From positions 124,001-188,000 of the forward strand of contig OZ361257.1 in the NCBI GenBank assembly GCA_977018835.1: DNA of 64,000 nt. Direction: 5' to 3'. Each line of letters opens with the position of its first letter. The first letter of the stretch is position 1. Below, one piece after another: positions 4,006 to 49,823 of the stretch. The notes under the pieces are model-generated. The model ran no database searches. It saw only the letters and a program-made list of their open reading frames with translations, and had not been told where the DNA came from. Origin of the DNA: Minutocellus sp. GHC0000111 (taxonomy: Eukaryota). Made by a program: the position numbers and the translations under genes.

Positions 4006-4248
<243 letters not shown>

Positions 4249-19160: not shown

Positions 19161-19218
19161 AAAGGTGGACTATTCGGTGCTGTCCAGCGCAGAGCATGGT
19201 GCACGATTTTCGGGATGG

Positions 19219-24660: not shown

Positions 24661-25107
24661 CAGTCCGTCCCCATCTAAAAGGATATTCATTTGGGACCTG
24701 AGGTCTGAAAATCCTTATCACGAAGCAAAATCTGAGGTCTCATCTGAGGATATTCTTATTTAGTGATGATGGCAGACCATGTAGCAAAAATAAGGTCTTA
24801 GGAGAGCAAGCACGAAGCTTTCGCCTACATTACATGCAAACCTCTCCAGATCAAGAGAAGCCTCGTCATCGCCATTAAGAAGCTTCTTAAAATCCTCCTG
24901 TGAAAGATAGGAGGCGTCCTCCCCGCCAAAGTCTGCAAAGTCTTCGACAATGATGAAAATGGCCCTGGTGATGCTGACGCCCCGTGACCTGCCATGAGAG
25001 AAAAATAAGGATATTAGCAAAGCTGAGGTCTGACTATCCCTATCAGTGGCAAATATTTGAGGTCTCAAACCAAGATATGAAATATCCTTATAGATGGGGA
25101 CAGACTG
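24661..25107. mobile_element. MITE / non-autonomous Tc1-mariner-type element
   Basis: TIR CAGTC(C/T)GTCCCCATCTA(A/T)AAGGATATT, TA on both flanks, repeated subterminal TGAGGTCT motifs. Confidence 0.88.
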
Positions 25108-25380: not shown

Positions 25381-27214
25381 GTTGATCTGGTCATTGTAAA
25401 TGAAATTGTCATACGTGTACAATCCGACCCGAAAATAAGGATTCAAATTGGAGCTAAGGTCTCAATATCCCTATTCTGGAACAAAGTCAGAGGTCTCAGG
25501 TAAGGACATCCACATTCATTTAGAGACGACGGAGCAACACAACGTACGGTAACTAGACTAGTGGATCTCTACTCATGATGCAGACTGCATCTGGAGTCCA
25601 AACAAACATGACTTGGGAAAGAATCAACAACTCCGCATCAGAAGGTAGTAACAAATGGAAACTTGTGGTCGCCTTTCAGCAATGTTGGGTGTGAAAAACC
25701 TTCAAATTTTCTTGAATAGATCCAATGAGGTTTCGGATGTTATTGAGAATGATGATTTGCCACACGTCCTGCGAGAATAATACGGATGCTGCCAAAGCCG
25801 AGGTCAATTTATCCTTAGACATCACAAGTAAGAATCTGAGGTCTCAAACAAGAATATCAAATATCCTCATTCTCTAGATCTATGTGCATCGCCGACATCT
25901 GCATCGCCAAGATCTGCATGTAACTTTAGACACTCTCTTTGTAAAGTAATGCGATGCCCACACCTACATGTAATGATCAAAGATACTGTAGTTAGTCTAT
26001 CATCTAGGCAGCGCTCCAATTACTACATTCAACGGCCCTGAGTATCACTACCACCAGTACATGTAAGAAGGTCAAAATTATCGGTGAATCCCTTCGAACC
26101 TATTTATCTCATCCTTTCAAGATGACAATCATACATGTCAACGTTTACGTAGATCTAGAATTTATTCACACATGTAAGGATGGATACATGTACCATAATC
26201 ATTGAGGCCCGTGGTGGTCTCAACATCCTTGTTAAGAGGCTAAATCTAGAGTCTAAGGTATCGGCCCAAGATATCCTTATTTCATAATGACGCGGCACAA
26301 GCGTGTAACAAATAAGGTTCTGTTTTGTTGACACCGACAGCATCTGAAATCTACTTAGGTTAATTTACAGGAACCACCAACCGGGTATGTCCATAGGACA
26401 CCGCCTCTAGGAGGCCAAGAAGCCCCCTCGGACTCGGAACACAACCCGGCTAGGATGGACCTGTGGGAGCAAGCACTTGGTGGGAGATACGGATTACAGT
26501 TTGGACGCCCAAACACGAAGGGGGACACATGTATGGTGAGGTGGACATAAATGTGGCTAGGTTTATGAGTTGTATCCCTTTCGTTGAGACTAGGATCATA
26601 TCCAACTGGCTAACTACAAAGCACCAGACAACGCAGGGATTGGATTGGCTCAAACTCAACGCTGCCTGGACGAGCTACGTAGGTTTTCATAACAGTCATA
26701 GGAATTCCTACATACATGTATTAACTAGTAGGTTATAGACTCTAGATCTACTTTCTTCGCTTCTCATCTTCTGATTATGTCGATCCTATAAACGTCTACG
26801 TAGAAAATTGTTATACATGTAGATCTAATACGTTGACGTAGAGTCTAGATAGATTCAATTTTTAAGACTCTTACATGTAAAAATAAATTGAATCTACGTT
26901 TATCAAATACATTAGACTCTACCGGTACATGTACATATAGATCTAGACCAAAACTCTAGATTTAGAGATCTCTAGACTCTACTTGTACCGGTACCGCGAT
27001 AGACTCAAGATCTACATTCTATTCTACCGATAGGTACCGGTAGTCAAGTCTAATAGAGACTATCTTTTGACGGGACATGGAAAAAAAGGCGCGCCTGACT
27101 GACCTTCGTGGGATCTGCAAAAGCAGTGATGTTGGTACCGTAGATCTACCTCCAAGTAACCCCTATGTTGAACCCGGTTGGACCTCCCGGAGACCGGACG
27201 GGCGCCTCGGCATG

Positions 27215-27592
27215 TACCATGGCACGTACATGTATAACAATTTTCTACGTAGACGTTTATAGGATCGACATAATCAGAAGATGAGAAGCGAAGAAAGTAG
27301 GATAAGCAAAGCCAGCCGCAAATAATTACTCATACATGTAGCGCCGTTCAGGTCCACTTCTAAATCCTCTAAACTGCTCGTAGTAACCACATTCTCGACT
27401 CGAATGACGAGCCGAGAATCCGTCACTATCAGAGCATCTACCAGTCTCAAAATGATTCTTTGCCTCCTCAGCGACCCTAGCTGCCTCTCCTCTCGGGAGT
27501 CGAACAAAATGCAGTCGTGATCTCTTGTGTAAAGAGAGACCGCGGGCAATGGCGCCAGCAATCGCTCGTCGATAAAGGTGCAAGGTGACCAC
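27215..27592 (-). mobile_element. 3' end of RLE (CRE-like) non-LTR retrotransposon, subfamily B
   Basis: Encodes LYRRAIAGAIARG..RLHFVR..EEAKNHFETGR..YEQFRGFRSGPERRY; near-identical to 42822-43115. Confidence 0.72.
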
Positions 27593-27840
27593 GTAGATCT
27601 ACCTCTCTCTATATTGAGTCGCCGCAGCACCTCGCTCCAGCCAAAGTACAAATGAAATAGCTCTTGAGTTCAGATAAGCAAAGTACACCATGACCCAACA
27701 GTAAACGCACACATGAACATTTCATTTGATTTAATTTAGCTAAGCCAACACCAATTACGAGTACCTAGGTACAATGTTTTAACAAGCATCTTTCAAAATG
27801 CTCAACTTACTTACACATGCACAATTTTATGTCGATGGAA

Positions 27841-29082
27841 TCATTTTCGCGTCTCGAAAGGAAGAGTTCCATTGAGGCGGATGCATGTGCGCCGCTTCCA
27901 TTCTTTTGTTTCTTTCTCCCAAGTTGACCTCCATTTGTTTATGCCAAGAATCGGTTTCCCAAGCGCATTGCAAACATTGCGCCACGTTTCCTTGTCCAAA
28001 TGGGCAGGCTTTGCAGAAATGCAAGCTGCGAGATATTTGCTCTGAAAAACGCTGATTTTGTCGATTGTGGCCGTTCCCGTGTGCTTTGATAGTGCCATCG
28101 ACATTGCAACGAGCTTTCCATAGACATTTCTGTCCAGCCATGACTTCTTATTCAGCTCGAATGCACCAGCAATAATGCCCAGCGGCGGATACAGGGTGTC
28201 TTCAGCAAAGTCACGAATGTCTTGAAACATACACACGAGCAGTATCCACAAGTACCCCAGCACATCGAACACGTTGATTATGATGCATTGATTCCTTCAT
28301 GTTGCCGATGTTGGTGTAACTGTCTCCCTTGCTACTATTATTCTTTTGACATCAGAACGATTGCATGGGTAGATATCAGAGTCGGGACATGCATCAAAGT
28401 CAAAATAATCCCAACCATACTTGTCTTCTCTTTTGCGATCTTTTCCAAGCTTCTCTTCATTCATCCACATTCCGCGGTGCGGCTCCAAACATCTTGGCAA
28501 ACGCTTGCTTGACTGGGATGGTTTCCTGACAGTAAGGCCCTGCCCTCCGATTGGTTGCATAAGTGTGTGTGCCACAAGATATTGTCTGGTGACAGCCCAG
28601 CCTTTCTCATTTAATCTGTCCTCCATTAGTAGTTTTGATGCAACAACATCAGGACGATCATCGTCATCAACGCCACTTCCATATCAGCTTCTTTTGGCCT
28701 TGTAGCATCTTATCGAGTATTCTTCACACGGAGCAACTCTAATCTTGCGCCCATTGAGGTAGAGCTGCATCTGATTGCTACTTGCAGGAATGGACTCACC
28801 ATGCACATTGATGTAATCGAAAATGTACATGCCAAATGGAGGATCGATTGCAACCATCCGATTTGCATCATGCATCATGAATGCAAAGAGATTATTATCT
28901 TGCAAGGCGTTTTGTTTGCGATGTTCATATGTTCTAGTTTCATTTTGAGGAAACCAGAAGGAAGCTGTTACAGAAGCGCGCTTGTTGCTGCTACTGTTGA
29001 GAAGATGCTTACTACTGTTGAAACAGTATGACGCTACCAAAACCACCCCAAGTAGTAAAGGCTGCCATAATGATGATGTCAT
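27841..29082 (-). pseudogene. Membrane-anchored hypothetical protein with two in-frame TGA stops
   Basis: ORFs 29082-28684, 28626-28297 and 28272-27841 are all in one frame, separated only by TGA codons. N-terminal hydrophobic segment present. Confidence 0.6.
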
Positions 29083-29591
29083 TTATTTTTATGCAAGTTA
29101 CTTACATTTGCATCTCTCTTTGCATTTCATGCATCTTCCAAATTTTCATTTAGGTACATGTAGATCTACTGCTACGTAGTACACATGCGTAAACAACACA
29201 TCATGTGTTTCTTACGTACAAGATGCGCCTGCTGCTATGTACTACTACGTAGTACCTAGGTACGTACTAGTAGTAAAGCCAATATTGGAACAATTTATTC
29301 TGGGAAAGAGAAATTACAAAGGCCTACAAAAAAGCACATTTCAACTGTGGTGCCGGTTTACGTACTAGTAGGGTGCACTTTCTGGCACAGCTCTCGGTAG
29401 GACCGAGGACATGTATGTATGAGTAGAATCTACGTAAACGTTTATCAAATTGTCATCTTGAGGGCAAGATCAATAGAACTAGACCTAGAGTCAAGGCAAT
29501 TCACCGTAAAAAAACTTAGACTCTAGATCTACATGTAGATCTAGAGTTGATCTACGAGGACCAGCCACCAAAATTAAAGGGGAACCTTTTC

Positions 29592-32500
29592 TTAACCGAA
29601 GGAAAATTTCGAACTCAAACTAGATATTGCACTTGAACATGAAGAAAGAGACATGGGACTTGTCAGTTTTTGTCAACAATGTTGATCACACTATGCGCGT
29701 CAAATCATATTTTGCTGTACTTACATGGCAAATGCTTGTGTTGCCGAGAGCGGGTGCTGGAAATCCATGGTAAAGGAGTGACGTCCTTCAATTCTACCAA
29801 ATTGGAGCATGACATGTTCCTGGTTACTTCGCTCGCACAATTGAAAATTTTTTACAGATGCCACACTAACACGACCTCCGAAATTCAGAACAAACGCTCC
29901 GAGTTCTGCATTCCACCAGGGTGGACGATTTTGCAAGGCCAAGAGTCCAAATTCGTCGGGGGATATGTCTCGATTGACACCTTCAGAATTATTCTGTCCC
30001 ACCGCACGCTGAGAGTTTCCATGTTGCGAACTAAACTGCTGCTGAAGCTGCTTGAATCTATGCATCATGCTTTCGTCCGCGCCCATTTCAAAAGCGGCGT
30101 CAATGTGAGATTTCCACAAAGGTGATACAGACCCTCCATTGGAAATTTTCGGAATACAAACGTCCACGATTCGAGGGCGATTGCCAAGTAGGTTAGCCGT
30201 GTACGTTATCACTCCTACTTCTTCTTCTTTAAATCGTTTTTTGGAAGAAGCATCTGGAGCGCTAGAAAAGAAAGGACCATTGTCACAATTGTCATTCGCT
30301 ATTGCCCGACGTGAGCGGAGAGTTGGCCAAGACCTCCTTCTTGTCTGCTGCATTGTAGATGAAACATCTGGATCTGTGGTTTTGTCTGCACCCTCCTCAG
30401 TGCCACTCACGATGCTACTTGCATTACTGCTTCGGCGACTACGTAACCGTTTAGACAATATCAAGCCATTCTGCATTTCAGTAGAGCCGAGAGAAATCGA
30501 GTGCTGTGGTGCAGACTGAACACTGCTCCAGGTTCCCTGACTGACAATGCTTGATACTTCCATGTCGCTGCCGCTTCCACTATCAAAGGAACTTGACCGA
30601 GAGTATCCTCTAACCGACTGAGAAGCTCCCTTATCTGACCCTACAGACTGATTCTGTCTCTTGGTAGAGAAAGGCGGGGCAAAAATTTGGAATTCAGTCC
30701 CAATGAAATTGCTCTGGAGTCTTCCTACTTCCCTAGAAATCACCTTGTCTGCAGACGGAAAGAGCCGCTGGTCTGGCCCACGAGAATCATTGCACACCGA
30801 CGCATCGTTCACTGCCAGAAAATGAGATTCGATGTCGCGGTCGGTTGGCATGTAGAGGTGGTAGTTGTTCACACCGCGTTTACCTGTGTTACTTGTCATC
30901 GTCACCTCTTAGTCCTTGTACTTTGCAATCATCAGGATTGTATCACATCTAGGGGTTGAAGCACCGTGCCCACTCGTTGTCTGTTCATCTTCTCTCTTGT
31001 CGCGAATGAAAAGTCTGTATTGATACGAGGGGGAAAATCTACCCTTCATGTTTACACCTTTTTTGGAGCTGGTTGTCTTGATTCTCTCTGTTTCACATTG
31101 GATGGTGCCAAAAGTCTTTGGGCAAGGATTTGTGAGGAAACTGTGAAGGTCAAACATTCTCGGGACTGGCGTGTGGCCGTCATGAAAGTGAACCCCTTTC
31201 GTTGAAGGAAAATATTCGTCCCAAAAATCAAGAAGACAGTCATCGAAGGCTGCGCTTTGGTAGTGGGTCAGATGCGAGTCAAGCTTTCGTTGGTAGAAAA
31301 GAACACGTGATCGCAGGCTGAGAAGAGAGGGTTCGTCCTTCGTAAGCCGATGCTGCATGCATGTGCTTTGCATCTTTGAGATCCCCATGGAGGATGAACT
31401 GTAAACCTCAACTTCAACATCAGGTGCATTAATGCCAATGAGAGGCACAGTAGTCGCATCTTCTCTAGCAGCTTGTGGGGCCAACATCCTTGTGTTATCT
31501 TCGCGAACACTGCTTCTTACAGAAACGCCACAATCCATTGAAGTGACATTTCTAGCCCGCGAGCTAGCGTGCATCAGAGAAGCAGATCGGAACAATCTGC
31601 TGGAAAAAAGAGGATGAAAAAAATCAGCTCCTAGACTAAGGGGGGCTGTCTTGCGCCTTCCGCCTTGATCATCCACAGCGGGACGTCCAAGCAAATGCCT
31701 ATCGGCCAAGTGACGATGGATTCTTACGGAACAAAGTGGCCGGTGCCGAAGAATTGCGGTGCTTCGATTGCCTAAGCAGGCAGATGATGTAAGATTGGTA
31801 GAGGATGCACTTCTACGAGGTGGTAGAGAAGCCTCTTCAAGCGAGGAAGATTGGCTACGGGCTGATGATGGGCGAAGAGCTACCGAATTCGTAAGAGAAT
31901 GCCGCCGGCGCTCCAGCAACGTCTGCAAGTTGGAGTTCTCTATTTCAGCACTTTTCTGTTGCCAAAAGAGACACTTTTCCTCTAGATATGTGACGTCGGA
32001 ATGGTAACACCCCCCCCCTCTCCCTCCATTCGTCTCTATTGGAATAGAAAGGGTCAAGAAAAGGCGATGCCCCGTGGCGATTGTCACTGTCATTTTCCGG
32101 ACCAATCGAGTTGGTGGTCACAGCTGAGCTATGAACCCCCCTCACTGCATTGGCTTCGGATGTTCGGGTGGTGACATCCCCATAAGTCACACCTCCTGCT
32201 ATCTCTCGACTAGGCCACGTTGACCCACTCTCATCTGAAGTGCGCATGTCTTGCGCTTCAACTGACATCCGCCAAGTGAGGGTCTGATACGAAAATCCGC
32301 GACATTTGGGATAGATCGGAACACCGCTACTAACACAGAGAGCAGCAAGTTCCTGGGCGTCTGAGTGTTCCCCCCGAAACTTTCGGCATGAACCAACATT
32401 ACGACACCACAAAGTAGCATTCAGGGCGCGTTTTCGACGGGTCAACACGTGCGTGTGCGAGTATAAGGAAAAATTGATCATTAGGACATGTTATTCTCAT

Positions 32501-32870
32501 TGAGAGGACAAACAGAACCAGTCAAGAGGAAATAAAACATTCCACCCTCATGCAAGGCATCAAGAAGAACGATTGAAACAATCGGCCCTACCCATGCCGT
32601 CACAATTTCCGTGGCACAGCGAAAGCCATGCATCCGAACTCTACGAAAGATCTCCCGGCTCGTGTTGCTCGCACTTCGTCCCGTCTGTCCGAGGTTGCTC
32701 CAATCTATTGGTGTCAGGAATGATGCGACACAGTGAAGGGAATCCAGCGGCAGGGACAAAAGAGGCGGTCCCCTTGTGCAACGCGAATGTCCTCCAAAGA
32801 TGGACTTGCTTCCTCCTTCGACATGTTCCCGTGGAGTGCATGGAACCGAGTTGTCAGAAATCATGGTCAA
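29592..32870 (-). pseudogene. F-box-like + Tubby C-terminal domain protein, disrupted
   Basis: N-terminal LLSLPLDSLHCVASFL (F-box-like); Tubby motifs LQSNFIGTEF and LQNRPPWWN..VLNFGGRVSVASVKNFQL, LQFGR. Frameshift in the C-run at ~32010 and an in-frame TAA at 30911-30909. Confidence 0.85.
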
Positions 32871-33211
32871 TTCACTTCTATGTGAACGTTTACTCGCCTA
32901 GCTAGATAGCTACAGCTACGTAGCTCTACTACTACGTAGCTAGTCTAGGCCTACTACGTAGCTACTAGCTAGCTACGTAGCTACGTACCGGTACTAGTAG
33001 CTCCTGTACGAAGCATTAAAAAAAAGAGAGAATTGTAGGTACGTCTATTTGCTGAAAAAGTACATACTAATCTAGTAGTACGGCTACGATACTCTAATTT
33101 ACCTACATAATACTCGCCAAAAAAAGGAGAACTCGCCAATGCTGCAATTGGGAACAGACTCACAAGCTAGATCACTTCACCCAGGTACGACGAGTATTTG
33201 AAACGCAAACC

Positions 33212-34910
33212 ATGGTCTCCTTCCGGAAGAGCAAGTCCAAGAAAACGGCAGCAGCGGAGGTTGCAAAGGAAGAAGTCCCGGAGAAGGCTTCTGCTACGGA
33301 GCCAAAGTCTGAGGAAAAGGGCGACGATGGGCCAGCAAAGGAGGAAAAGCCAAAGCCAGCTCCCGCACCAGCCCCGTCAAAGCCCCCCACCCTTGATGAT
33401 ATTCCTGATCTGCTCAAAACAATGACTGAGGAAAAGGGCGAAAAATCTGCCGCTGCTACAAAGAGAATTTATGAACTTTGTGACGTTGGCCACAAGCAGA
33501 ATCGTGTTCCGATGGTTTGCTCCGGCAAGTGGGATGTCCTTACCCCGCTCGCCAAATGCCTCACACAAGAATCGGGCGATGGGCGCCACTTGGCCTGCTT
33601 GGCGTTGAACAATCTGTCCATTCCCACCGAGAACAAACGAGTAATGGCCCTCGGGCCTGCCTCGAAAGAGGTTATCGGTGGGCTTTGCAAAGTTATTGCG
33701 GAGGATAAGCAGGAATCTTACTTGTGCTGCATCTGTCTAATGAATCTTTCCTTCCTTGAGGCATCCATTACAACAATCCTTCAGCATAGCCCCGTTGACG
33801 AAGGTGCTTCGCCTGTTCCTCCCCTGGATAACCCGAATTCCCTCATCCGTGTCCTTGAGAAGCTCCTCACCAACTCTCCCTCTGCGCCAAAGTCAGGATC
33901 TGGCAAGTCGGAGGGAGTTCGTTGGGCATGCGGTCTCATCAAGAACTTGGCCAAATCAGAGGAGAACGCTGCTCTATTCGGCAAGACCGAAATCCCTCGC
34001 TGCATCGTAGAAAACATTCGCAACACCACAGCCCCTCCCTCTCGATGGACTTCCAACTCGCTTGAGGATTTTTCTCTTTTTGTTATCCTCAACCTTGCCC
34101 AGTGGCCTGTATCGAAGGAGGCCCTCATCAATGCTGGTGCCGTTGACGTGATCAAACCAATCATGTCTGAGGGCGACCTGCAGGGACTCAAGGCCACTAT
34201 GGCATGTGCATTCCTCGATGCAAAGTGGGGAGACTTCCCTGAGGGTGGCGCTCCTGCCTCCAAGTCTGTTTCGGAGTTGATGACAAACATAGTTGAGAAA
34301 AAGGGAAAGGATGGTCAGTATGCCTATGGTGTCTTCAAACTATACACAGCTACGAAGGCCTACCGCGATTTGGCAGTTTCTGCCATGGAGTCTGGTAGCT
34401 CTAGCACCAAGGCACTTGCCACGCCTTCTTCCGTCGCCCTCTGCCTCCAGGTTGTTTCTGACCTCGTCCTTGCGGCTGTTGATGACGCCGAGGGTGGATC
34501 GAAATATGTTCCAGACGCCATGTCTGCTGAATATGCAGTTGGTGCCATCGAAGCTATGCTCCCTGCCATTCTTGACGAGGCCGATCCTCCTCGTGTTTCT
34601 GTCCAGTCCGAAAAGGCCGCAGGTGAGGTTGCGCAAATGCTTTTGACATATTCTGACATCGCTGGCACTTCCGCCGCAGCAAAGGCAAGTGCAAAAAAAA
34701 TCCGCCGACGAGATCAAGTCTTCCGGAGGCTCCGCCCGACCCATCCTGGAGATCAGCCATGATTTGTGGACCCAATACCGCAAGCGTGAAGGCCAGCCAC
34801 TAGACCAATTCATTAGCCAAGAGAAGGGAATTGAGGTGGATGAGTCAGGTCCGCTAGACTTTCTCCCATGCGTCAACTCAAGCGGAGAGACGAGTTGCAC
34901 CATCTTGTAG
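33212..34910 (+). CDS. Armadillo/HEAT-like repeat protein with C-terminal CaaX (CTIL); frameshift in an A-run at ~34695
   Basis: ARM-like helices (ACLALNNLS, CICLMNLS, WACGLIKNLA, VILNLAQ, INAGAVDVIKP). The frame continues in ORF 34689-34910. Confidence 0.75.
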
Positions 34911-35322
34911 ATGCTTTTATTATACGTGAGGTCAATCGACTCTGATCCATTATATTTTTCAACCTTTACATAAAAATATAATCTTGTTGTTTTGGAAATG
35001 AAAGCATTTTGAACATTAGAAATCATCGTCGCTTGAGCAGGGCACTCATAATATTATAAACCAATAAAAAGATCGCAAAAGTCATATAACGAAAGACCCT
35101 TCTGTATGGATCCCTAAAATGTTTTTCCATTCAAAAAGCTTTAAAAAACTATTCGACAAAGAAAATGCTCTGTATCGATGCATGTTCTTCTCGGGAGGTA
35201 GGGATCCCTACACCTCCGAAGAAGATTGATCCAGTCTAGATAGAAAGAAGGATTTTAAATCTGGAATCAGGAAAAATTTGATGATAAGCTTGTTTGCAAA
35301 ATGTGTATACATGTATATAGGG

Positions 35323-35885
35323 AAATTATCATGCTCGTCGTCGGGTGTCCCCATCGATTCGCCGCATGTGATTGTGTTCTCCAATGGTACAACTATCATC
35401 CTGCGAAAGATGGGACCCGTACATACCATCGTTCTCGCCAAACAATTCACTCATTCCAGGGCTCCAAGTAAATTGTTGTACTCTGCTGCAAGATTTGGAC
35501 GACGATGACACCGCCTTCTTGCCAAAATTATCATGCTCGTCGTCGGGTGTCCCCATCGATTCGCCGCATGTGATTGTGTTCTCCAATGGTACAACTATCA
35601 TCCTGCGAAAGATGGGACCCGTACATACCATCGTTCTCGCCAAACAATTCACTCATTCCAGGGCTCCAAGTAAATTGTTGTACTCTGCTGCAAGATTTGG
35701 ACGACGATGACACCGCCTTCTTGCAGAAATTATCATGCTCGTCGTCGGGTGTCCCCATCGATTCGCCGCATGTGATTGTGTTCTCCAATGGTACAACTAT
35801 CATCCTGCGAAAGATGGGACCCGTACATACCATAGTTCTCGCCAAACAATTCCGTCATGGAAAGGCTCTGATCGCATTCGAGAGA
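35323..35885 (+). repeat. ~203-bp tandem repeat, ~2.7 units
   Basis: Same unit as 62020-64000. Confidence 0.95.
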
Positions 35886-36289
35886 ATAAAATGGACCTTC
35901 GAGTTGTCCGCGCTTTTAGGCCTATGTTACGTTAGATGTTCCTTTTTTAATGTCGACCATACATGAACGTAGATTCGGGCGATGGAAAGTGAAGTAAATG
36001 CTGGTAGAATAAGAAAGGGAAGCCGCAAAGTACTCATATCGCCGTTCAGGTCCACTTTTAAAACCTCTAAATAGTTCTACATGGACACGTATTTATGACT
36101 TGCTGCCGGTGTTCTGAGGAAAATGGAGTCTCAGCCCGTCATTCGAGAAATCCAAAATGGCTTCAAACCAATGATAAATCCCCTCTCCACTTTATCGGTT
36201 ATACCAGAAAACACAGATTAGTCAATATTAGATCTAATGTCCGTAGGCATGTCGCACTACCGGTACTCACTACTACCGGTAGCTTGACT

Positions 36290-37116
36290 AGTACAACATA
36301 ATGACATTTGGTGTGTCCTCCCCCTTGGGACTGTCAGGTTCACATCCTTCCATGGCATTAGTGCCTCGACAGTTGCGTTGACATTGCAACATTCGCCAAA
36401 TATTTCCTTTACATCATCAATCAATATCCCGACTGATTCATACACCTCGCGTGCCTAGGTATCTTGAGGCGACTTCGGTACGTGTACCGGTAGGGCATCA
36501 GGTAATGGCAGTCCACTGCTGGCCGTTTGACTCTTGAAAAGAAGTAGAGCACGATGTTGACCTCTCTGCGCACAGTGTTAACCTCAGGGGTTTGTCGGGG
36601 CTCTCGAGAGGCAAAGCATCTCCAAGATCGTCGAGTGAGTCCGCAAAGTTTCTATATAGATGCCTTGGCTCCTCTGTTTGAACTCGGGAAGGGAGCTCGA
36701 AACAGACTACCTCCGCGACTCTTGTGGCAACACTTTCGTTCAACCTAAAGGTGGGCCGGCTTCCTCATCATTGTATCAATGAAATGAGTCGCAGCCTCCC
36801 GATGAAGGGAAGCCAGCTCGCAGATGAGTGGTTGTTCGTGTTTATCCTCCAGACGGAATAGGTCGTTCTTGTACGATGGGGCTGTGCTCTTCAAATTGGC
36901 AGTGGAAAAGTCACACCGAGCGCGAGCATTGGCAATTCTTTCAGCCTCCTGGTCTACTAGCTGAAGTTGAAGTAAAGTCATCGTGGTCGGCAACATCATC
37001 GGCGTGGCAACGGGGAAAGTGTCATCGTTTTCATTGTCGGCAAGGGCAGCATCTGACTTGTCATCAACACCGCCAGCAGATTTTGCTACGGAGCAGTGTC
37101 GGCCGTGAGACTGCAA
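36290..37116 (-). pseudogene. Fragmented hypothetical coding sequence
   Basis: Three consecutive protein-like ORF pieces on the minus strand in shifting frames; no recognisable family. Confidence 0.3.
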
Positions 37117-37488
37117 GACAGCTACCTACGTACATGTAGCTACATGAAGGCACATGTAGTGTGTCACATTTGTTCGTACTGCGATACGTACGTAATTCTC
37201 TAGCTGCGTAGCTACGTAGGCCTCTAGCTACGTACGTAGCTAGACTAGTCTAGTCTACCTAGCTAGCTACGTACTAGCTAGCTACGTACTAGTACCAATT
37301 GGTAATTTTGAGAGAGTACATGTACTAGTAGAGTACCTCTCTAGGTACGTATGCACCAGTCTTTTCTCTAGACTAGGATCTCCTGTAACCTACGTACCAG
37401 GTACCTACAGGTAAACAAGAGCGTTGAATCGGATCAAGATAAAAACCACAAGGTTACCTTCTCAATTGGAGTATTACAGTTTTCCATC

Positions 37489-39592
37489 ATGGCAAACAAC
37501 CCGTTCGATGATTTCGCGCAAGATTTTGGCGCTTCGCTCCCGGGACTGCAAAACCAGGCGCCTCCTGCCGATGGCTCAGGCAGTGTTGTTGGCACAGCAG
37601 CAGCTGGCGGCGCAGCTCCTTTTTCTACAACTTCGTTCAGTGTTCAGCAGCAAGTGCCTCCGAGCACCGTTGTGAATCAGCCTCAGCAGTTTGGTCAAGT
37701 CCCAGTTTCTCAGCAGTATCCTCGCCAACAGCTTCCCTCCTCTGCTCCAGCCGCAGTTGCAACGAATGGAACAGTTGTTCCTCCTGTTCAGCAGCAGCCA
37801 CCGGCATCGCAGCAGCCCGTCATTGGTACCAACACTTCTGCCGCGGGCATGTACTATCAGCAACCACCGGCACAGCAGGCTCACCGGCCGCTGCCACCAC
37901 AGACATCCTCTTCTGCTCTTGTCCCTACCGCCGTTGATGCCGCCACTCCCAGTCCATACGCTTCAATGCTCGGACCTCCCCCGGTTGGTCAGCAGCTTAA
38001 CGTGCCACCTTCCGTGGGAGTGCCGAACGGTGTTGGTGCACCTTCCTCCGCTTCTTCTATTGGTGTCAATCCGTTCCAGACTGTTCCTCCAACTGTCGCT
38101 TCAACCATCCCGGTCATCGATCAAAGCAACCCCTTTGCCGCTGCTCCTGTCCGAGCACCCCTCGTGCAGGCTCCTGTCGTGGGAGAAGCTAGTACTTCAC
38201 CTCCTTTTCAAGACTCTTTGCCTGGGGTTTCCGGAATGGTCCCTACCACTGCTCCTGGTCCCTGTGGTACGCCAGCCGTTCCTAATGCAGGCCAAGGGCA
38301 ATTCGACCCCATTTCAATGGCCCACCCTCCAGCACCTTCTAACGACCCATTCGGAGCATCGGTTTCCCCGCCGTCCCTCGGCGCTAGCGCTAGTGCTCTT
38401 GTCCCGGCCTCCCAACCTTCAGATGATCCCTTCGGTGTGTTTGCGACACCTTCTGCTGCAGTTGCGCCTGTCGATCCCACCGGAAGCGTTGATCCCGTGT
38501 CAGCCTCCGCGCCTCCTCCTTCGAGCGATCCCTGGGCCGATATGGGCTTTGGACCCCCCATACCTGACTCAGGCAACGTCACAGCTGTGGGGTCTACTGC
38601 GTCGGTTGGCGGTGCAACTCAGGGTGAAACCAGACAAGGAAGGGATGGTTCAAAGACCTCCAACCGAACTCCTGGAGAGTTACCTCCTGGTGGCGAGTGG
38701 TACGATGCACGTATTTTCACCCCTACCCTTGGAGTCATGTTCTTCAAGCCACAGGAACTTACCGACAGCTTGTTCCTTCAGACTGACAAAGCTCTTGTCG
38801 ATGCCTTAGACGACCGCCCTGTCGTTGCATTCATAGTGGAGGGGTCTTCTGCTCGTTCAGCAGGCGTCGAGTTAGGCCACGTTCTCCTTAAGGTGAATGG
38901 AATAGACGTCAAGAATCCCAAGGAAGCATCGAGACTCATTAAGGAGGGACCACGCCCTCTCCCTCTCCTCTTCTGTGTCCCCGACACCACGGTGGTTGTT
39001 GCCGAGGGAGAGCACATGGTGAAGTACGACACTCGAGAAACCGGAGCTCCAAACTCAGCGAAGGACTGGAAGCCAAAGTATGTTGTCATTGGAGGAATAA
39101 TTGCTCAGCCTAGGATGATGAACATGTACCGGTCCAAGGTAAGTTGACATGAACGATTCTATTTTGTAATGTCGAAGGATTTAGTTCGAAGTGCATTTTC
39201 TCTTCACACCGTCCACTGACCACGAAATTCTTGTCCTTTCTCAACCTGTACAGTCTGAGTATGACATCGCAGTCATCGAAACGCGAGCCCGTCGGCCGGT
39301 TTCAGTTAAAGTCAAGCAGTTTTCGTTGCAAGGAGCACACATCCAGAATGATTGGCAGGGGCCACAAATGGTGAAATATAAAAACAAACTTCATCCTTGG
39401 AAGTATATTGTCGTCCTCCCTGTTTCTCGGAACCCAATCAAGATCTCCAGTCCAAACCTCAGCCAACTGAAGCCAGTCCACGAGGGCATCAGGCGTGTTT
39501 TAATGGCTCAGCAGCGTGACCATGGTCATCCAAGTCCTCACACAGCTGCACCCGTAAGAACTGCGGATCCATATTCTCGAAATGGTCACTGA
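37489..39592 (+). CDS. Pro/Ala-rich protein with NPF/DPF/DPW motifs, PDZ domain and PH-like C-terminus
   Basis: PDZ signature VVAFIVEGSSARSAGVELGHVLLKVNGIDV; intron 39139-39253. Confidence 0.85.
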
Positions 39593-39849
39593 ACTTATTA
39601 GAGTGGTAATGGTAGAAGAACCAGCAAAGTAATTTTCGTTTTAAAAGAACCTAACGATCAGACGTTTCTGACAACGCTCACGACATGATGATCCTCTCGT
39701 GCTCTTGACGCATAGATCTACATGTAGATCTAGAATATTAGATCTAATATCCACATTTCCTCCTCGGTTGATGAAGGGTCGAAAACAGAAGCGTAGGTCT
39801 AGACTCTACCGGTAGTCTAGATCTAGATCTACATGCCTTGACTCTAGAT

Positions 39850-40110
39850 CTAGATCTATTGATCTTGCCCTCAAGATGACAATTTGATAAACTAGATCTA
39901 GATCTACGCCCTGAGTATCACTACATGTAGATCTAGAGATCTAGATCTAGCTAGATCTAGACTCTAGTTAATCTAGAGTCTAGACTAGACTAACTAGTCT
40001 ACGAATAAGAAAGACGAAGGTGTTGCGGTGAATTGCCTTGACCCTATTGACTTTGCCCTCAAGATGACAAAATTTGACAAACGTTTACGTAGATCTAGAT
40101 TCTACATGTA
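39850..40110 (+). mobile_element. Fragments of RLE retrotransposon subfamily A 3'UTR riddled with TA footprints
   Basis: GAATAAGAAAGACGAAG..TGAATTGCCTTGACCCTATTGA..GCCCTCAAGATGACAA..AAACGTTTACGTAGA. Confidence 0.7.
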
Positions 40111-40556
40111 GATCTATAACTCGCCTACTAGAGGAGCTCCTCTAGTGACATTCTTACCTGATTTGTAATATGTATACATATAATATATAAGATCTACCTA
40201 TATATTACAAATCAGCAAAGAATGTCATTAGTAATATACCTAGGTACATGCATATAACAAATCAGCAAAGAATGCCGCTACATGTACATGTACATGTAGC
40301 TACATGTAGTACCTAGGTACATGTATGATGACTCGACTCAAGCGAGAAAAAAACGACGACAAGTGCATGCATAGATCTAGATCTAGATCTAGATCTATTC
40401 TAGCTACTAGATCTAGATCTAGATGTACACACTGCGGAATTTGCGGCACATGTAGATCTAGTAGGTGATCGTTGCTATATAAGGACCAACGTTCAAATCT
40501 CACTACCAACGACAACAGACCATTCCTGAACATAATATATATATATGTTACCGGTA

Positions 40557-40618
40557 GTCCCACTTTGCGCACTGTCCCAGTTTGCGAACTGGGACAGTAC
40601 ATGTACGCATTTTGGGAC
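40557..40618. mobile_element. Tiny palindromic MITE (GTCCCA..TGGGAC); related end at 41531
   Basis: TA-GTCCCACTTTGCGCACTGTCCCAGTTTGCGAACTGGGACAGT[ACATGTA]CGCATTTTGGGAC-TA. Confidence 0.65.
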
Positions 40619-40861
40619 TAGATCTAACACTGCTTGGTCGAGCTTAGATCTAGCTCCCAGCAGGGTCTGTTCGTCGTAGTTGTTGGTAGTTCGCTGGGAT
40701 TTGACCGTTGACGCGTCCGTTGGGATTCGTCGCAACGATCACCTAACTCGCCTACTAGATCTAGATCTAGCGACATTCTTTTCTTACATGTATTTGTAAC
40801 ATGTATACATATATAATATAACTCGCCTACTAGATCTAGTGACATTCTTTGCTGATTTGTA

Positions 40862-41375
40862 CCGTAGTTCAAAGAGTAAGCCATTAAAGAATTAGTCCCA
40901 TCAGGCGAGCTTGGGCAATTTTGTTAAAATATTGTTCCCATCCTGTAGATCTATATGTTAATTCAAACACCCGACTTGGTGACGTGACAATTTTTGAAGA
41001 ACTGTTACCACCCTCGTCTCGAGCAATCTGTGCCGCCTCCTCAGAAATGAACTTGAAAATGGTGCTGCCATGGTGTGAAGAAGATGAAGAAGGCAATCAA
41101 ACTGCGTACAAGGAAAATAAAGAACTTCACGGCAATTCTCACTAGAGAAGATACATGTAAGACGAAGTGCAGAAGGTCTCTCTATGCACTCTAGATCTAC
41201 ATGTAGCTACGTGCACCTAGGCTGCACGTAGCATGTGCCGTAAAGAGATAACGCCACATGTAGCAAGCATGTAGCATGGAGTTCAAACATTATTCCCATC
41301 ATCGGAAGTCGACTTAAATATTTTTAATGCTCCCATCCATGAAAAAATTTCGATGGCTTATTCTTTGAACTACGG
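40862..41375. mobile_element. Non-autonomous TIR element (CCGTA ends) inserted in the tail of a SINE-like copy
   Basis: TIR CCGTAGTTCAAAGA(G/A)TAAGCCAT with TA duplication. Removing it restores the consensus GATTTGTAATATATA seen at 41500. Confidence 0.92.
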
Positions 41376-41403
41376 TAATATATACATATAGGAATTCCTA
41401 CTG

Positions 41404-41526
41404 GGATGGTCTGTTCGTCGTTGGTAGTTCGCTGGGATTTGACCGTTAGGATTCGTTCCAACGATCACCTAACTCGCCTACTAATGACATTCTTTGCTGA
41501 TTTGTAATATATATATATATATATAT
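41404..41526 (+). mobile_element. SINE-like repeat, cleanest copy, ending in (TA)n
   Basis: Homologous copies at 15152, 40117, 40200-40540 (minus), 40665, 45608 (minus), 50172 (minus) and 58005 share the 3' end TTTGCTGATTTGTAAT. Confidence 0.75.
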
Positions 41527-42200
41527 GTTAGTCCCAAAATGCGCACTGTCCCAGTTCGCGAACTGGGATCCCAGTTTGCGAACTTGGGTTAGGGTTGGAT
41601 TTATTTATCCCAGTTTGGAAACTGGGATCATAGGCACAATCTCAGTTTGCAAACTGGGATCAATCGAGAAATAATGAATATTTAGCATGGATGATATCGC
41701 CTTTGCTTCTCCTCGCTTCATTTTTTCATAGTGAAGCAACACAGCCCAAACCTGGTCCAGACGTCCAGACGACACTATCAGCAAAGAAATATATATATGT
41801 AGCAATTCCGAGGTTACATGTGACGTACGTACGTAGCCCAGACCATCAATTATTGAGAGCCATCAGCATATTGAGACCAATGGTCTGAAACGAATACTCC
41901 CAGGTACCGGTACATGTAGGTACTAGATTTACGAGCTATTCCGAGGTTACAGGAGCGGCCTTGAGCATCACTACGAGTACATATATATACCGGTAGTTCT
42001 AGATCTAGTAGATATAGATCTTAATAAAATCATGAACTAACTCCACTTTCTCTTCGATTCCTGGGAAATCATTAACTCCGCTTTCTTTTCGATTCCTGGG
42101 AAATGGCGTTCGACCAAAGTGTGGAATATCGGTCCATAGGCAATTCCGAGGTTATAAATGGCCCTAAACTCACTACTAGTACTAGATCTAGTAGAGTCTA

Positions 42201-42680
42201 CAGTCAGGTCAGTTCTCACCTATAAGCACATTCCTTGTGCTTAGCTGAGGGCTGAGATTTAGGGCATCGACAAGCAAACTCCAGGGCTGAGCTCAAATTT
42301 GTGCTTATTTTAATCGCTGTTTCAGGATGGAAGCATCACTAAGAAAGGCACTTTGTCGACACGAACACCTCATGATGTAACACTTTGGAGAGGTTGGGTG
42401 GGTGTTATCAGTCGAAAGGAGACCTTCACATGCTTCTGTCGATTTGATAGAGAAGCCAGTGATCACATTAGCCTTCTCTAGATGCAGCTTGAAGTGGGGG
42501 ACTGGACTCTAGCTCGCCTTTTAGCTCATCAAGCATGTGTTAATTTAGCATCTGCCATGTCATTGTGCAACAAGCAAATTGCTTAGTCCAGGGCTCGAAT
42601 GTTGGGTGATCACAAGCACATCCAGGGCTGGAGCAAAAATCCTTCGTGCTTATAGGTGAGAACTGACCTGACACTGACTG
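42201..42680. mobile_element. MITE with CAGTCAGG TIRs
   Basis: TIR CAGTCAGGTCAGTTCTCACCTATAAGCAC at both ends (5-nt insertion in the right TIR), TA on both flanks. Confidence 0.9.
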
Positions 42681-42821
42681 TAGATCTACATCTTGAAAAG
42701 AATAAGACTCGGACCTACATGTATTGTTTGTATCTCTTCAAGATGACAATTCCAAACGTTTTACATACATTTTTCATAGATCTAGCTGTTGTTGTTCAAC
42801 ATACATGTACATGTATATAGA

Positions 42822-43115
42822 GATCACGACTGCATTTTGTTCGAGGCTCGAGAGGAGAGGCAGCTAGGGTCGCTGAGGAGGCGAAGAATCATTTTGAGAC
42901 TGGTAGGTGCTCTGATAGTGACGGATTCTCGGCTCGTCATTTGAGTCGAGAATATGGTTACTACGAGCAGTTTAGAGGATTTAGAAGTGGACCTGAACGG
43001 CGCTATGAGTAATTATTTGCGGCTGGCTTTGCTTGTCCTACTTTCTTCGCTTCTCATCTTCTGATTATGTCGATCCTATAAACGTCTACGTAGAAAATCG
43101 TTATACATGTAAAAA
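42822..43115 (+). mobile_element. 3' end of RLE retrotransposon subfamily B
   Basis: Near-identical to the reverse complement of 27230-27525; ends ATAAACGTCTACGTAGAAAATCGTTATACATGTAAAAAA. Confidence 0.75.
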
Positions 43116-45446: not shown

Positions 45447-45858
45447 GGAGAGGGTTTCGGTTTGAAAAAGAGAATTTCGGGCCATAAGGGCCTGATACGG
45501 AAATCCAGATTCTGAGCGAACCGCTGGAAAAAAATCTAGTTGACGGATCAAGGTGAGCAGATAGAAATCTGCATTAATTTTTAATCCGTTCGTAGATTTA
45601 GTTTAGATCAAATCAGCGAAGAATGCCGCTACATGTACATGTAGTAGGAGTTAGGTGATCGTTACAATAAAGACCAACGGTCAAATCTCACTACCAACCT
45701 ACCAACGATCATTAACTAGCTAGATCTAAATCAGGGCGTTGGCGTGGTGTTTTTTTTTCAGAGATTCCGGTCAGAATTTGGGTCCAAGTACAAATTTGAG
45801 GCCAAAAATACGAGCCAAAAATCCAAAAATTCTCTCTTTTCACAACCGAACCCACTCC
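45447..45858. mobile_element. MITE with GG..CC ends carrying a nested SINE-like copy
   Basis: Imperfect TIR GGAG(A/T)GGGTT(T)CGGTT(G)TGAAAA(..)GAGAATT, TA on both flanks. Confidence 0.8.
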
Positions 45859-45907: not shown

Positions 45908-46363
45908 CTGGAGCGCTCCTGAAATCATTTAGCTCGTTCTAAATTCTACATGGTAGGAACGCCTCGCTAAAAATACCCTAATGTAAATTGAATAAAATGA
46001 CGTCGGCGCAATAGAATTTAGCGGACCCTTGACAAGGGTCCGCTAAATTTTAGAGCGGTATAGATTCTAATTCCAGACACATTTGCATGTGCAAGCAGTG
46101 TGTATGTGCATATGGCACCCTCAGCGTCTGCCAACTCTTTGGCTTGAGCGCAGGAACATTTGGCGGCACAAATGGCTTTAGGAGTGAAGGAGAAATCTTT
46201 GCTCTTGTTGCAACTGAATCGATTGTCTTGACCATGACAATACATGTGCTGCATGTAGGACTCACAATGGTCACAGGCGTTTCTGCATGACATAAATATG
46301 CGAAGGGCAATAGAATTTAATTTATCATCTAGACAGCGCTAAATGATTTCAGGAGCGCTCCAC
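45908..46363. mobile_element. Non-autonomous TIR element with internal palindrome and Cys-rich ORF fragment
   Basis: TIR (C/G)TGGAGCGCTCCTGAAATCATTTAGC, TA on both flanks. Confidence 0.85.
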
Positions 46364-46654: not shown

Positions 46655-47042
46655 CAGTCCGTCCCCGAAATAAGCATACAGTCCGTCCCCGAAAATAAGC
46701 ATATCCATTCTGGAGCTGAGGTCTCAATACTAATATGCTTATTTTGGAATAAGGCATTTTAACACGAATGAGATAGTCTACCAATGGCTTCTTAGAATAA
46801 GCAATAGGCCCAAAATCTGAGGTCTCAAACAAGCATATCAAATATGCTTATTTCGGGGACGGACTGTACATGTATTCTATATGCTTGTTTGAGTCCTCAG
46901 ATTTTGGGCCTATTGCTTATTCTAAGAAGCAATTAGATCTAGTATCTCATTTGTGTTAAAATGCCTTGTTCCAAAATAAGCATATTGAGACCTCAGCTCC
47001 AGAATGGATACCGGTATGCTTATAATTTTCGGGGACGGACTG
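46655..47042. mobile_element. Two nested MITEs of the CAGTCCGTCCCCGAAA family (inner copy 46679-46866, opposite orientation)
   Basis: Four TIR copies CAGTCCGTCCCCGAAA(A)TAAGCAT; each element is TA-flanked; the internal sequences are reverse complements of each other. Confidence 0.92.
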
Positions 47043-47125: not shown

Positions 47126-49823
47126 CAGTCCGTCCCCTCCTATAAGCAATGTCATTGACCCCCCCCCCCCAACAAAGATGATCTTCATCAAGATCTTTAT
47201 AGTTAAAGTAAGTCTACATCTGTTGGCTGACGATGCGAAGCATCAGAAAACAAAAGGAATTCGACTTTGCTGCGGAACCAGGCACCGTACAAGACTGCAA
47301 TGTGGCGAGGGCACCGTAGGTCTAGATCTATCTAAAACAGCTTTTGAAGGCGCGTGCTAGCTAGCTCTTTATGGTCTTGCATAGAGATAGTTTTAAAACA
47401 TAGAGAGTCTGTACATGGTAGCCCATGTTTCCAATGATCGATGCTTCTCAGAGTTACTCTACATGTAGCTGAATCTAGATCTACATTTTGAGACTGGCCA
47501 ATGTTCTGAGGAAATGGATTCTTTTCTCGTCATTCGAGTAGAGAGTATGTGAACTTGGTAACCTTATCGCCCCGTTGATACCGCACCCCGAGCTCAAGGT
47601 CGTCGATCTCAACCTTCACCTTCTCTCCATTGCTATCAGGAGTGTGTCGCTTGAGACTCGAGATCTTTTGATTGCAGCCAACAGCGGCATGCTTGCGACT
47701 TTTTGCCTGACCGTCGGATTCATAGTCCTCGTATTGAAGTTCCAATCGCTCTGTAACAAACTCAGAAAGGCCGTAGATTTCGGCAATGTGGTCGCAAAGA
47801 TGGCCGGCGGTCATGTCAGCATTCTCGTCGTAAATGTCTCGCCAATCTTTGTCATTTTTTAGCGCATCGTTGACCTTAGCATCTGGAGAGAAATTCTGAT
47901 TACGCGTAAGCTTTTCCACCTTCTGCTCCCTGGCGACTCTCTTGATCATGATGCGCCCATTGAAATCAACGTCTTTGGTTTCATCCTTCATTGGTCGGCC
48001 AACAACTCCAAGACACATAACTTTGACAGGGTGTCTTCTGGATCAAATTTTCGGGCTTGCCTCGGAAGCATGGATAGACGCGAGGTTCGGACTACTTAGT
48101 TCTTCGTCAGAAAGTGGCAACATCTTGATCTTTCGTCGCCGAGTAGTAGTGTAAAACCACTTTTCATCAAGATACGCTACAGGAATGTTGGGATCGGTCG
48201 TAATGTCCTCCCACTTTTCGATCCAATCAAGTCGCTTCCTACAATGTTCGGGGGTGAGCCTCGGCTTCTCGATCGACGACTTCTCCTTACCGCCTTTCTT
48301 TTTCCACCAGCGAAAAAGCTGAAGACGATGGAGACTAATTGTCAGCCTATCTTCATCTGGAGTAGCTGATTTTGCGCTCACACAGTCAGCTAGCTCCTTA
48401 AAGGTTGCCATCGCACCCTTCATCCGAGTAGCACACCGACACAGCTCGCGGAGATATCCTGGCTCCTTCTCCTCGATCATGTCCGTGTATGCCTTCCTTC
48501 CACGAACCTCCTTTCTGCCGATGGGATTGCTGATGCCATCAGTAAGGCTTTTGTAGAGCTGGTCTCTCCACTTGTAAAGCTGAGAACCACCGACCGGTTG
48601 ACTTGGCATAACCGTGATCGTACGCAACTTGCCGACACGCGGCAGTTGCAATTTGTTGCCGGTCTTCATACGTGCGAGTTGGTCGCCGCATCCCCACCAA
48701 TCCGCGAGAGCCACGGCGCTGAACCGCATTCTTTCATTCGCCTGCTTTTCTTTTCTGATTGGTGTTGGTTCGGTGACGGTTGCATTGGGACGAGGAGGAC
48801 GGAGCATGTCATCGTTGGCCATCCGAACAACAAAGTCGAGGCCGAGAGCGACCTTTACCTGTTCATCAATGTCACTGGAGGTGGCACAGACAACGGAAGT
48901 ATCGGCTCCTCCTAAACCTTCATCATTGGGGGAGGCTGCAGCTGCTTCAGTGGCGGAAGTATCACCAGTTCCCTTCAGTATGCTGAGGAGACTTGCTGGC
49001 ATCCAACCCAGTTTCTTGGCCTCGTCGACTAGTGATTTTACTCTTGCTTCGCAATGCGCTGACTGTACCTCCTTTCTGTGAGCTGACAACCTCTCACCTA
49101 GCTTAGTAGCTAAGACAGTCGAGCGCCCAGAGAACAGAACTTCATCGGGATTTCTTTTCTCGTGCACCTTCTGTCCCTCCGGTCCAGAGAATTTCGGGTG
49201 GTTGTCCTCCTTCTTTTTACGCAACCTGTGAGCACAAACACAAGCGCCCTGCGTCTTGTCTTCCCTCTCGGCCGACACGTCGACAAGTGCAACTTCAAAC
49301 TACAATGCTCCTTGAGATGTTGCTGCATATCCTTCCATTTTTCCTCGTTGTACTGTAGCTCATACTTTCCTCCACCGACGGACTTGGAACGCAACAAGTC
49401 GGCCTCGATGAAAGCAGGGAGGACGTCTTCCCATTTCTGCCGAGAACCAACACAAATGTCATCTTTGCCGCAGGAATCGGGGGTTACTCTCCACCACAGA
49501 TCCTTACCAGCCCTTCGAATGACATCTGCTGCAAGGAGAAAGGCCATGGGGATAGGAGGAGGGGCCGTCCTCTTCTTCGCCGACGACGGTGACGGTTTGG
49601 CGGGCGAGTTTGACCGTGGCCGCTTCTTCGACGTGTTTGCGCTCGGCGATGGTGTTTTCGGCTCAGCTGCCGCCTTTGCCGCCTTCCTGGATGCCTTGGT
49701 GTTGCCTCTCTTGCTCCCTGAGAACGAAGTTCTGCTGCGTTTGTATTTTTTGGGCGTGGTCTGGTTGGTCGTCGTCATCGTCACAAAATTTGCGGGTTGC
49801 GGTGAGGGTGTGCGGGGGACCAA
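47126..49823 (-). mobile_element. Second mariner-like (DD39D-type) transposase relic, frameshifted and C-terminally truncated
   Basis: YLDEKWFY and SRRHPVKVMCLGVVGRP..DFNGRIMIKR across ORFs 49823-49110, 49278-48043 and 48018-47530. A CAGTCCGTCCCC TIR-like end lies at 47126; the partner TIR was not found. Confidence 0.8.

Follow-up and report, generated by a model that had tools for sequence, protein, structure and literature searches.

TA-bounded palindromic units in the non-coding DNA of Minutocellus sp., probable excision footprints of several Tc1/mariner-type families

The non-coding DNA of a 64,000-nucleotide (nt) stretch from Minutocellus sp. GHC0000111 (contig OZ361257.1 of assembly GCA_977018835.1, positions 124,001 to 188,000; hereafter the window) is rich in short palindromic cores bounded by TA dinucleotides, such as TA-GATC-TA and TA-CATG-TA, which in places follow one another in chains. 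We consider that these cores are most probably excision footprints of several families of Tc1/mariner-type elements and of their MITEs (miniature inverted-repeat transposable elements), and that such footprints probably stacked into chains at repeatedly used sites; the excision event itself we infer from sequence. A footprint origin had been proposed in an initial annotation of the window, and it is supported by TA-flanked elements with matching ends and by a transposase found in the same 64 kb.

Evidence for insertion comes from dispersed repeats whose copies are either empty or filled at the same TA, and all the repeat pairs quoted in the initial annotation were present in the sequence exactly as described. 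In the repeat family designated E, positions 42998-43015 read GC-TA-TGAG, whereas the minus strand at 27326-27348 reads GC-TA-CATG-TA-TGAG; the two copies (43000 and 27335) align over 299 columns at 95% identity with this 6-nt unit as the sole gap, and a third copy (36030-36050) is likewise empty at that TA. The TA-CATG-TA unit itself occupies 27331-27340, with its empty twins at about 43003, within the minus-strand copy 42819-43111, and at about 36038. Another family E end (39836-39866, plus strand) holds two GATC units, the corresponding TA being empty at 40046 and 50102, and a decayed two-unit version of this end lies at 29466-29500 on the minus strand. Similarly, 46694-46712 reads GCA-TA-TCC and the minus strand at 47000-47026 reads GCA-TA-CCGG-TA-TCC. 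Insertion at TA with the gain of one additional TA was thus confirmed by empty and filled pairs in families A, D and E.

Family D has a hot TA, in the context CTAC-TA-RYG, which is covered by all but two of the 18 rows of its alignment. Scanning metagenomes with a motif of family D returned 40 loci, five of which (L004, L030, L031, L036 and L037; 7,132 nt) belong to a related organism; the other 35 (198,242 nt) are apparently fortuitous matches and were used as a control. The hot TA is empty in five copies (41478, 50200 and 40225, the latter two on the minus strand, together with L031 and L037) and holds GATC at 40831 (unit 40828-40838), GATC twice at 40757 (40755-40770), GAGGAGCTCCTC at 40129 (40129-40144), CATG twice at 45640 (minus-strand copy 45622-45665), CATG in L036, TG plus GC at 58076 and C plus CATG at 15213, the sequences at 40129 and 40831 being those originally quoted. 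Four more copies (40280, 8350, 4885 and L004) lack the left flank and end in chains at this site. Because one TA with the same flanks can be empty or hold different cores, the flanks are not the template of the cores. Further filled sites were found at 27333 (CATG), 47010 (CCGG), 46773 (GTC), 39845 (GATC twice), 40644 (GATC, relative to L036) and in the family D tail of L030 (CATG), and the TA of the CAG-ended MITE that is filled at 47010 carries another insert at 4470.

Tabulating indels at TA, as had been proposed, gave an excess over chance, with most indels lying elsewhere. Among 22 clean gaps of at least 3 nt between repeat copies, six fit a core plus TA at a TA, against 1.7 +/- 1.2 expected by chance (2000 trials, the highest of which gave 6); the remaining 16 fail this strict rule, two of them (40133 and 40644) being TA units on manual reading. 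TA units are therefore an enriched class of indels, yet a minority of them. Strains were compared through the assembled contigs of sequencing runs rather than raw reads, using the 12 best-supported of 349 indels in one comparison and the 12 best-supported of 37 over 50730-53900; run X15, which is identical to several pieces of the window and may be its source, was left out as independent evidence. Two of the latter 12 lie at TA, three others (51966, 52900 and 53450) are simple tandem duplications, and small indels of other kinds make up the remainder. An X1 contig over 50730-51135 is 6 nt short on balance, as is an X3 contig over 51095-51269, in which a 2-nt gap falls on the TA of the unit at 51222. 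At 53305, a TA duplicated on its own is polymorphic in each of the four runs. These differences suggest that units are polymorphic between strains.

The words themselves are strongly enriched. Under an order-2 Markov model of the window, TAGATCTA was observed 94 times against 1.3 expected, TACATGTA 56 times against 1.6 and TACCGGTA 20 times against 0.5, an enrichment of 34-70x, and TAGGCCTA (10 against 0.7), TACGTA (62 against 10.6) and TAGCTA (53 against 11.6) are also in excess. Four-letter palindromes between TAs occur 209 times against 8.9 expected within the 64-kb window. TA stands apart from the remaining 15 bounding dinucleotides, with counts of 8-59 against 8.6-19.5 expected, and the highest of these, AT (59), is probably inflated by overlap with chains. 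Of the cores first listed, GTAC is weak (3 against 0.6) and CCAATTGG is seen once as a full unit. The four 4-nt units are absent from 28,160 coding nt and number 179 in 32,361 non-coding nt, according to a coding mask drawn by hand from open reading frames (ORFs) and Pfam hits, with 3,479 nt of satellite kept out of the comparison. The commonest one-letter variants of TACATGTA are CACATGTA/TACATGTG (17) and TACATGCA/TGCATGTA (10), and their counterparts among the variants of TAGATCTA are scarce (3 and 3); this may reflect a greater age of the CATG units or their formation beside CA/TG sites. An assembly or sequencing artefact is very unlikely as the source of these words, its probability being close to nil on the basis of assembled contigs: contigs of run X16 span chains nearly unchanged (50730-51317 with one other letter and one gap, 31041-33025 with no other letter and two gaps), the units avoid coding DNA, and the five related loci carry 10 TAGATCTA, 15 TACATGTA and 6 TACCGGTA (31 in 7,132 nt) against 1, 4 and 3 in the 35 control loci (8 in 198,242 nt).

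Inverted-repeat elements ending in CA (four elements), CC, GG, CG and GT sit between TA pairs in the window, and the terminal bases of resident elements correspond to the cores CATG, CCGG, GGCC, CG and GTC/GAC. An outer MITE with CAG...CTG ends and TA flanks (46655-47042) carries CCGG, GATC and CATG units and harbours at one of its TAs an inner MITE of the same family (46679-46866), inserted with TA duplication, which adjoins a TA-CATG-TA unit at its own site and contains GTC and CTAA insertions. A longer TA-flanked member of the CAG-ended family lies at 24661-25107, and a second CAG-ended inverted-repeat element (42201-42680) is adjoined by GAGTC and GATC units and has a related end in L036. 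The CCG...CGG-ended element at 40862-41375 entered the tail of a family D copy with TA duplication, the empty tail being seen at 41494-41512; this element and the inner MITE are the ones with an empty-site twin that shows the TA duplication. In addition, there are a candidate GGAG-ended element with TA flanks (45447-45858, a weak case with 9 of 12 end bases matching), an element with the ends CTGGAG and GTGGAG (45908-46363), adjoined by CATG and GC units, and a 62-nt GTC...GAC-ended hairpin element (40557-40618), adjoined by CCGG and GATC units.

A transposase, required in the genome for an origin from Tc1/mariner elements, was found as a frameshifted copy. The plus-strand Tc1/mariner-type element at 18363-20673 has CGA ends with imperfect terminal inverted repeats, adjoins a CATG unit (outer TA intact, inner one reading TG) and a CCGG unit, and encodes at about 19237-20462 a frameshifted transposase with a Tc3-type helix-turn-helix and a D-D-38-D triad. 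It matches PF01498 with E=6.8e-6, under the curated cut-off, and keeps the motifs DEKWFW, QGDNAGPH and NVLD; DEKWF and NVLD we take to resemble the plant DD39D group. An uninterrupted relative, P0121, is 97% identical and belongs to a cluster of 146 sequences that maybe represents several genomes, and the named relatives are from Cylindrotheca closterium and Nitzschia inconspicua. A similarity search with this transposase gave 70 hits at E<=1e-10, and the D-D-38-D spacing is conserved in the aligned relatives, including the diatom proteins. The enzyme may represent a little-described diatom lineage, of which no published account was found in our literature search. A pattern search with this transposase gave 46 matches in genome contigs and 4 in viral contigs, none of which was confirmed, and a chain-motif search of the viral contigs gave two loci, neither similar to the window.

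The spectrum of cores looks as if it had been shaped by variable retention of element ends. Non-coding counts, observed against expected, of the series with GA ends are GC 50/13.9, GAC 16/6.8, GATC 94/1.8, GAGC 9/2.3, GAGTC 15/0.4 and GATTC 7/1.0, with no GAGCTC, and are compatible with GAG or GAC ends. CA ends occur in the 2+2 form only, and since CA-N-TG was not observed, only GA has the 5-nt form. Against 60 CG and 50 GC cores there are no CGCG and a single GCGC, as would be expected from overhangs that pair with themselves or from 1+1 trimming. Cores whose ends are complementary C/G bases are enriched (211 against 23.3 for length 4), whereas those ending in A/T are not (8 against 8.1), and longer symmetric cores recur as well, GGAATTCC three times and CCTAGG six times in the window, each also in L037.

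According to established Tc1/mariner chemistry, the transposase would cut each end a few bases inward, and end-joining would then retain n bases of the left and m bases of the right end. Ends in CA would yield CATG, ends in CC would yield CCGG and ends in GG would yield GGCC, and a still-unfound family with GA(G/C) ends would yield GATC, GAC/GTC, GAGC/GCTC and GACTC/GAGTC; CG and GC might be 1+1 remnants or products of self-pairing 2-nt overhangs. Scarred TAs, or the open DNA around them, would be preferred targets, and slippage might lengthen some uniform runs. In a single-celled alga, unlike in the soma of a worm, end-joining scars from dividing cells would be inherited and could therefore accumulate.

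In total, the roughly 1,700 ancestral TAs of the non-coding DNA carry 374 units arranged in 222 chains; 141 of these chains consist of a single unit and 116 of 152 neighbour pairs differ in their cores. The initial annotation had supposed that the doubling of TA by each footprint drives chain growth. Chains of at least four units number 18, against about 1.8 under uniform TA-doubling (Yule) and 0.1 under a Poisson model, and uniform growth of either kind was rejected. Because doubling alone under-predicts the long chains tenfold, reuse of hotspots and some slippage are also needed. Among sites that were hit, a geometric law is superior to a truncated Poisson (log-likelihood -252.6 against -270.5), as would be expected for doubling among a susceptible subset of TAs; since differences in rate between sites give the same geometric shape, feedback is not isolated by this fit. 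The repeated use of the same sites, also claimed initially, stood up: 11 of 18 element ends adjoin a unit, against 3.7-4.0 expected from the TAs within 150-600 nt (P about 0.0001-0.0003). Ten of these 11 adjoining units have the core of another family and one has that of its own element, so that scars generated by the elements themselves were rejected as an explanation. As an association, scars of other families lie next to surviving elements at about three times the frequency expected from local chance, and it is likely that scars pile up into chains.

Of the 32,361 non-coding nt, 1,975 lie in units (6.1%, or 5.4% net of chance), at a density of about 10 per kb of non-coding DNA, with an upper bound of 14.7% if every TA-spacer of up to 5 nt is taken. 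Tracts in which all TA spacers are at most 5 nt sum to 1,655 nt, and those made wholly of units are only 30-100 nt long. The statement that intergenic DNA is built from such units was consequently too strong overall and applies to whole local tracts; that footprints generated much of the non-coding DNA is not supported, as judged by this 5-6% share, by the six of 22 clean gaps that fit the TA rule, and by the two of 12 best-supported strain indels (of 37) that lie at TA. The tracts appear in two dialects. Cores of the type CG, GC, C, G and GGCC gather upstream of inferred gene starts (60 units upstream against 16 downstream), as in a tract of 25 TAs with such C/G-bounded cores between divergently oriented genes (32899-32999), at 37120-37410 upstream of a PDZ-domain gene, at 3130-3402 upstream of a gene start inferred near 2695 on the minus strand, and at 53560-53680, where the X3 contig skips 113 nt with unknown letters between. 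GATC and CATG gather in decayed repeats and at gene ends (19 upstream against 62 downstream), as in the chains among decayed repeats at 39700-40460, downstream of the PDZ-domain gene. Gene starts and ends for these counts were estimated by eye. The split is strong per unit (Fisher P=2e-12, the units being clustered) and not significant per tract (5 of 8 against 2 of 10, P=0.14), when shared divergent promoters are counted once and the 29021-29775 tract (6 against 5) as well as four zones with fewer than two units are dropped; we therefore regard it as a lead only. A (CA)n run of 235 nt at 4010-4244 is terminated by a CATG/GATC chain.

Several observations weigh against a footprint origin or limit its reach. 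No clear GA-ended element was found, in the 64 kb or in the five related loci, for GATC, the commonest core with 94 units; the sole GA-ended candidate (26852-26894) may consist of a pair of inverted repeat ends, and a GC-ended element was likewise not found there. The nine resident elements were chosen by hand from end-match scans, the GG-ended one being weak. At no single site in the window or the related loci were an empty copy, an element and a footprint of the same family seen together: at the family D tail TA, the empty state (41502), the CC-ended element (40862) and CATG (L030) are of different families. One-sided footprints are not enriched (GA/TC 20 against 22.4, CA/TG 28 against 20.4, CAG/CTG 6 against 5.1). 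Because the repeat copies offer no clean empty and filled pair for a CG core, the footprint origin is weaker, and slippage or selection stronger, for the CG/GC dialect. The insertion core CTAA at 46728 is not palindromic, and the filled sites 40597, 46940 and 40790, which lack a TA in their sister copies, would need a prior point mutation. Among 44 neighbour pairs of 4-nt cores 24 are identical, against 21.8 expected from pair frequencies and 17.0 from window frequencies (P=0.023), and since this is slightly above the latter expectation, slippage likely adds something. Finally, 22 of 109 sides of GATC start with GA, against 7.5% at unit-free TAs; decayed neighbours probably account for part of this excess.

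Among the other explanations, replication slippage would have grown the chains from rare seeds, the units being microsatellite-like repeats of TAGATC, TACATG, TAGC and TAC. We regard this as unlikely, even though many insertions of G (47 of 61), C (39 of 62), GC (26 of 53) and GATC (37 of 94) are compatible with exact tandem duplication, uniform runs such as the four GATC units at 40372 exist, several of the displayed strain indels are plain tandem duplications, and identical neighbours are in modest excess over window frequencies. No first unit can arise in this way where a site is still empty, as in CTAC-TA-GTGAC, the tandem-compatible fraction is low for CG (11 of 62), CATG (10 of 56), CCGG (1 of 20) and GGCC (0 of 10), and both the single-unit chains and the differing neighbours counted above speak against it. 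Somewhat less probable still is a direct micro-insertion of short palindromes at TA with no full element ever present, for instance by abortive transposase reactions that transfer end fragments. It would agree with the lack of an element for GATC, with the dominance of symmetric over one-sided cores, and with the excess of units over surviving elements (374 against 9, about 40 to 1); however, five resident end types match cores, the GA series follows the n+m pattern expected of end-trimming, and 64 kb is too short to expect every family.

That the units are selected transcription-factor sites which rose by substitution, like the Phytophthora promoter motif TACATGTA, we hold to be improbable. 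One study describes TACATGTA as abundant upstream of Phytophthora genes and judges it not to be a footprint (PMC3520976), another reports binding of PsMyb37 to it (PMC11134190), and the CG/GC units of the window are enriched upstream of inferred gene starts. Against this, paired copies show that units were gained as entire insertions, most GATC and CATG units are downstream or in decayed repeats, the upstream bias is not significant by tract, and the 53560-53680 tract is not alignable in one strain. Selection of this kind concerns the retention of units, and could act on top of a footprint origin. Short palindromic additions at a repaired break that copy its flank are known as P-nucleotides and as hairpin-opening footprints of hAT-type elements, and fold-back or template-switch repair of this kind could copy an inverted flank into the TA site. 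The GA excess beside GATC and two hand-checked sites (39845 and the L030 tail) fit such a copy, but the required flank borders 4-nt units on 29 of 218 free sides (CATG 5 of 71, CCGG 2 of 26, GGCC 0 of 12), leaving 189 sides on which the core does not follow the flank; moreover, none of the four quoted pairs fits, and a single site with fixed flanks accepts many cores. Fold-back repair was thus rejected as the origin, being largely refuted and very improbable. A 4-bp GTAC duplication as the source of TA-CG-TA was also rejected, G and C flanks being found in 4 of 62 cases.

An origin of the units as excision footprints can be compared with known systems. A single scar of this kind is textbook knowledge; heritable, chained scars of several families at such a density, with elements beside the scars of other families, were not encountered in a literature search with thin coverage of subscription journals. 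For Caenorhabditis elegans, taCATGta is given as the Tc1 footprint and as rare in the genome (PMC3520976), and a +4 scar is typical of somatic Tc1 excision, with empty sites made by non-homologous end joining (NHEJ) (PMC13148408). The window resembles Tc1/Tc3 as described there in the net gain at a TA target, consisting of two bases of each end and a TA, and in the correspondence of that footprint to the CAG-ended MITEs; unlike there, where one family is involved and the empty sites come mostly from soma, the window has five or more core families, fixed and chained, at the density given above. For Stowaway elements and Osmar5, PMC1925063 reports retained terminal inverted repeat fragments of 1-4 bp, re-insertion where a footprint already sits, and repeated insertion and loss at one TA; relic end residues of plant mariner elements (PMC3660474) and NHEJ footprints with local hopping (PMC2874221) are described in two further articles. 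As in those reports, 1-4 bp of the ends are retained within TA pairs here, one orthologous site may hold several footprints, and insertion occurs beside an old footprint. In contrast to the single loci described there, the pattern extends over the whole window, and the transposase has a spacing of 38 and diatom proteins as its named relatives. The Phytophthora motif-1/AM-20 is the same 8-mer, TACATGTA, likewise abundant in the non-coding DNA of another stramenopile; there it is regarded as a Myb site and a footprint origin is argued against, whereas here the same word arises by insertion. The window cores also differ from hAT hairpin footprints in being mostly unrelated to their flanks. A literature search, in which subscription journals were thinly covered, found no publication on genome-scale chained footprints in diatoms.

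If a footprint origin is correct, the core spectrum would be a fossil record of active families and of the depth of end cutting, and an undiscovered GA-ended family would be predicted as the most active one. The assumption, made in PMC3520976, that the high abundance of TACATGTA precludes a footprint would become testable, and motif finders will call these words promoter motifs in such genomes. It is conceivable, albeit doubtful, that unrelated TA-targeting families land preferentially on scars, because each of these makes a TA flanked by C/G, and that chains thereby seed their own growth; they might in this way have built promoter-proximal CG/GC tracts of 100-300 nt from nothing and supply diatoms with regulatory DNA of fast turnover, the Phytophthora TACATGTA Myb site being an older, exapted case.

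The genes in the window encode a myosin, an SNF1 kinase, Tub and CRAL-TRIO proteins, the second subunit of RNA polymerase I and a solute transporter; the top named match of the SNF1 kinase is from Triparma (94%), followed by oomycetes and brown algae. Judged from its sequence, the DNA is likely that of a diatom. Family E, represented by 27227-27600, 42819-43111 (a copy cut off at a TA chain), 50229-50720 and L031:345-1033, runs on in L031 into an open frame of 192 residues, which presumably resembles the endonuclease end of CRE-type retrotransposons without long terminal repeats. Since Pfam gave no significant family for this frame, the initial label of family E as a retroelement was not established; Pfam gave none for the ORFs at 47533-49299 either. 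The SINE-like label first given to the repeat seen at 40129 and 40831 was likewise not established. A perfect inverted duplication of 74 nt of the family E end lies at 26748-26821 and 27227-27300, 400 nt apart. Long ORFs without a Pfam family are present at 47554-49865; summed contig depth over 47756-48400 is 33,000-76,000 in runs X15 and X16, against about 90-390 in single-copy bins, and 54 in X3, and the region looks like a very high-copy, strain-variable element. A dispersed tandem satellite of 202-203 nt occurs in both orientations at 7230-7680, 14900-15100, 35290-35870 and 61990-64000. The contigs of X1, X15 and X16 have a common 26-nt gap within 35828-36366, and a 21-nt tandem duplication in the CRAL-TRIO frame (51966-51986) is present in X16 and absent from X1, X2 and X3.

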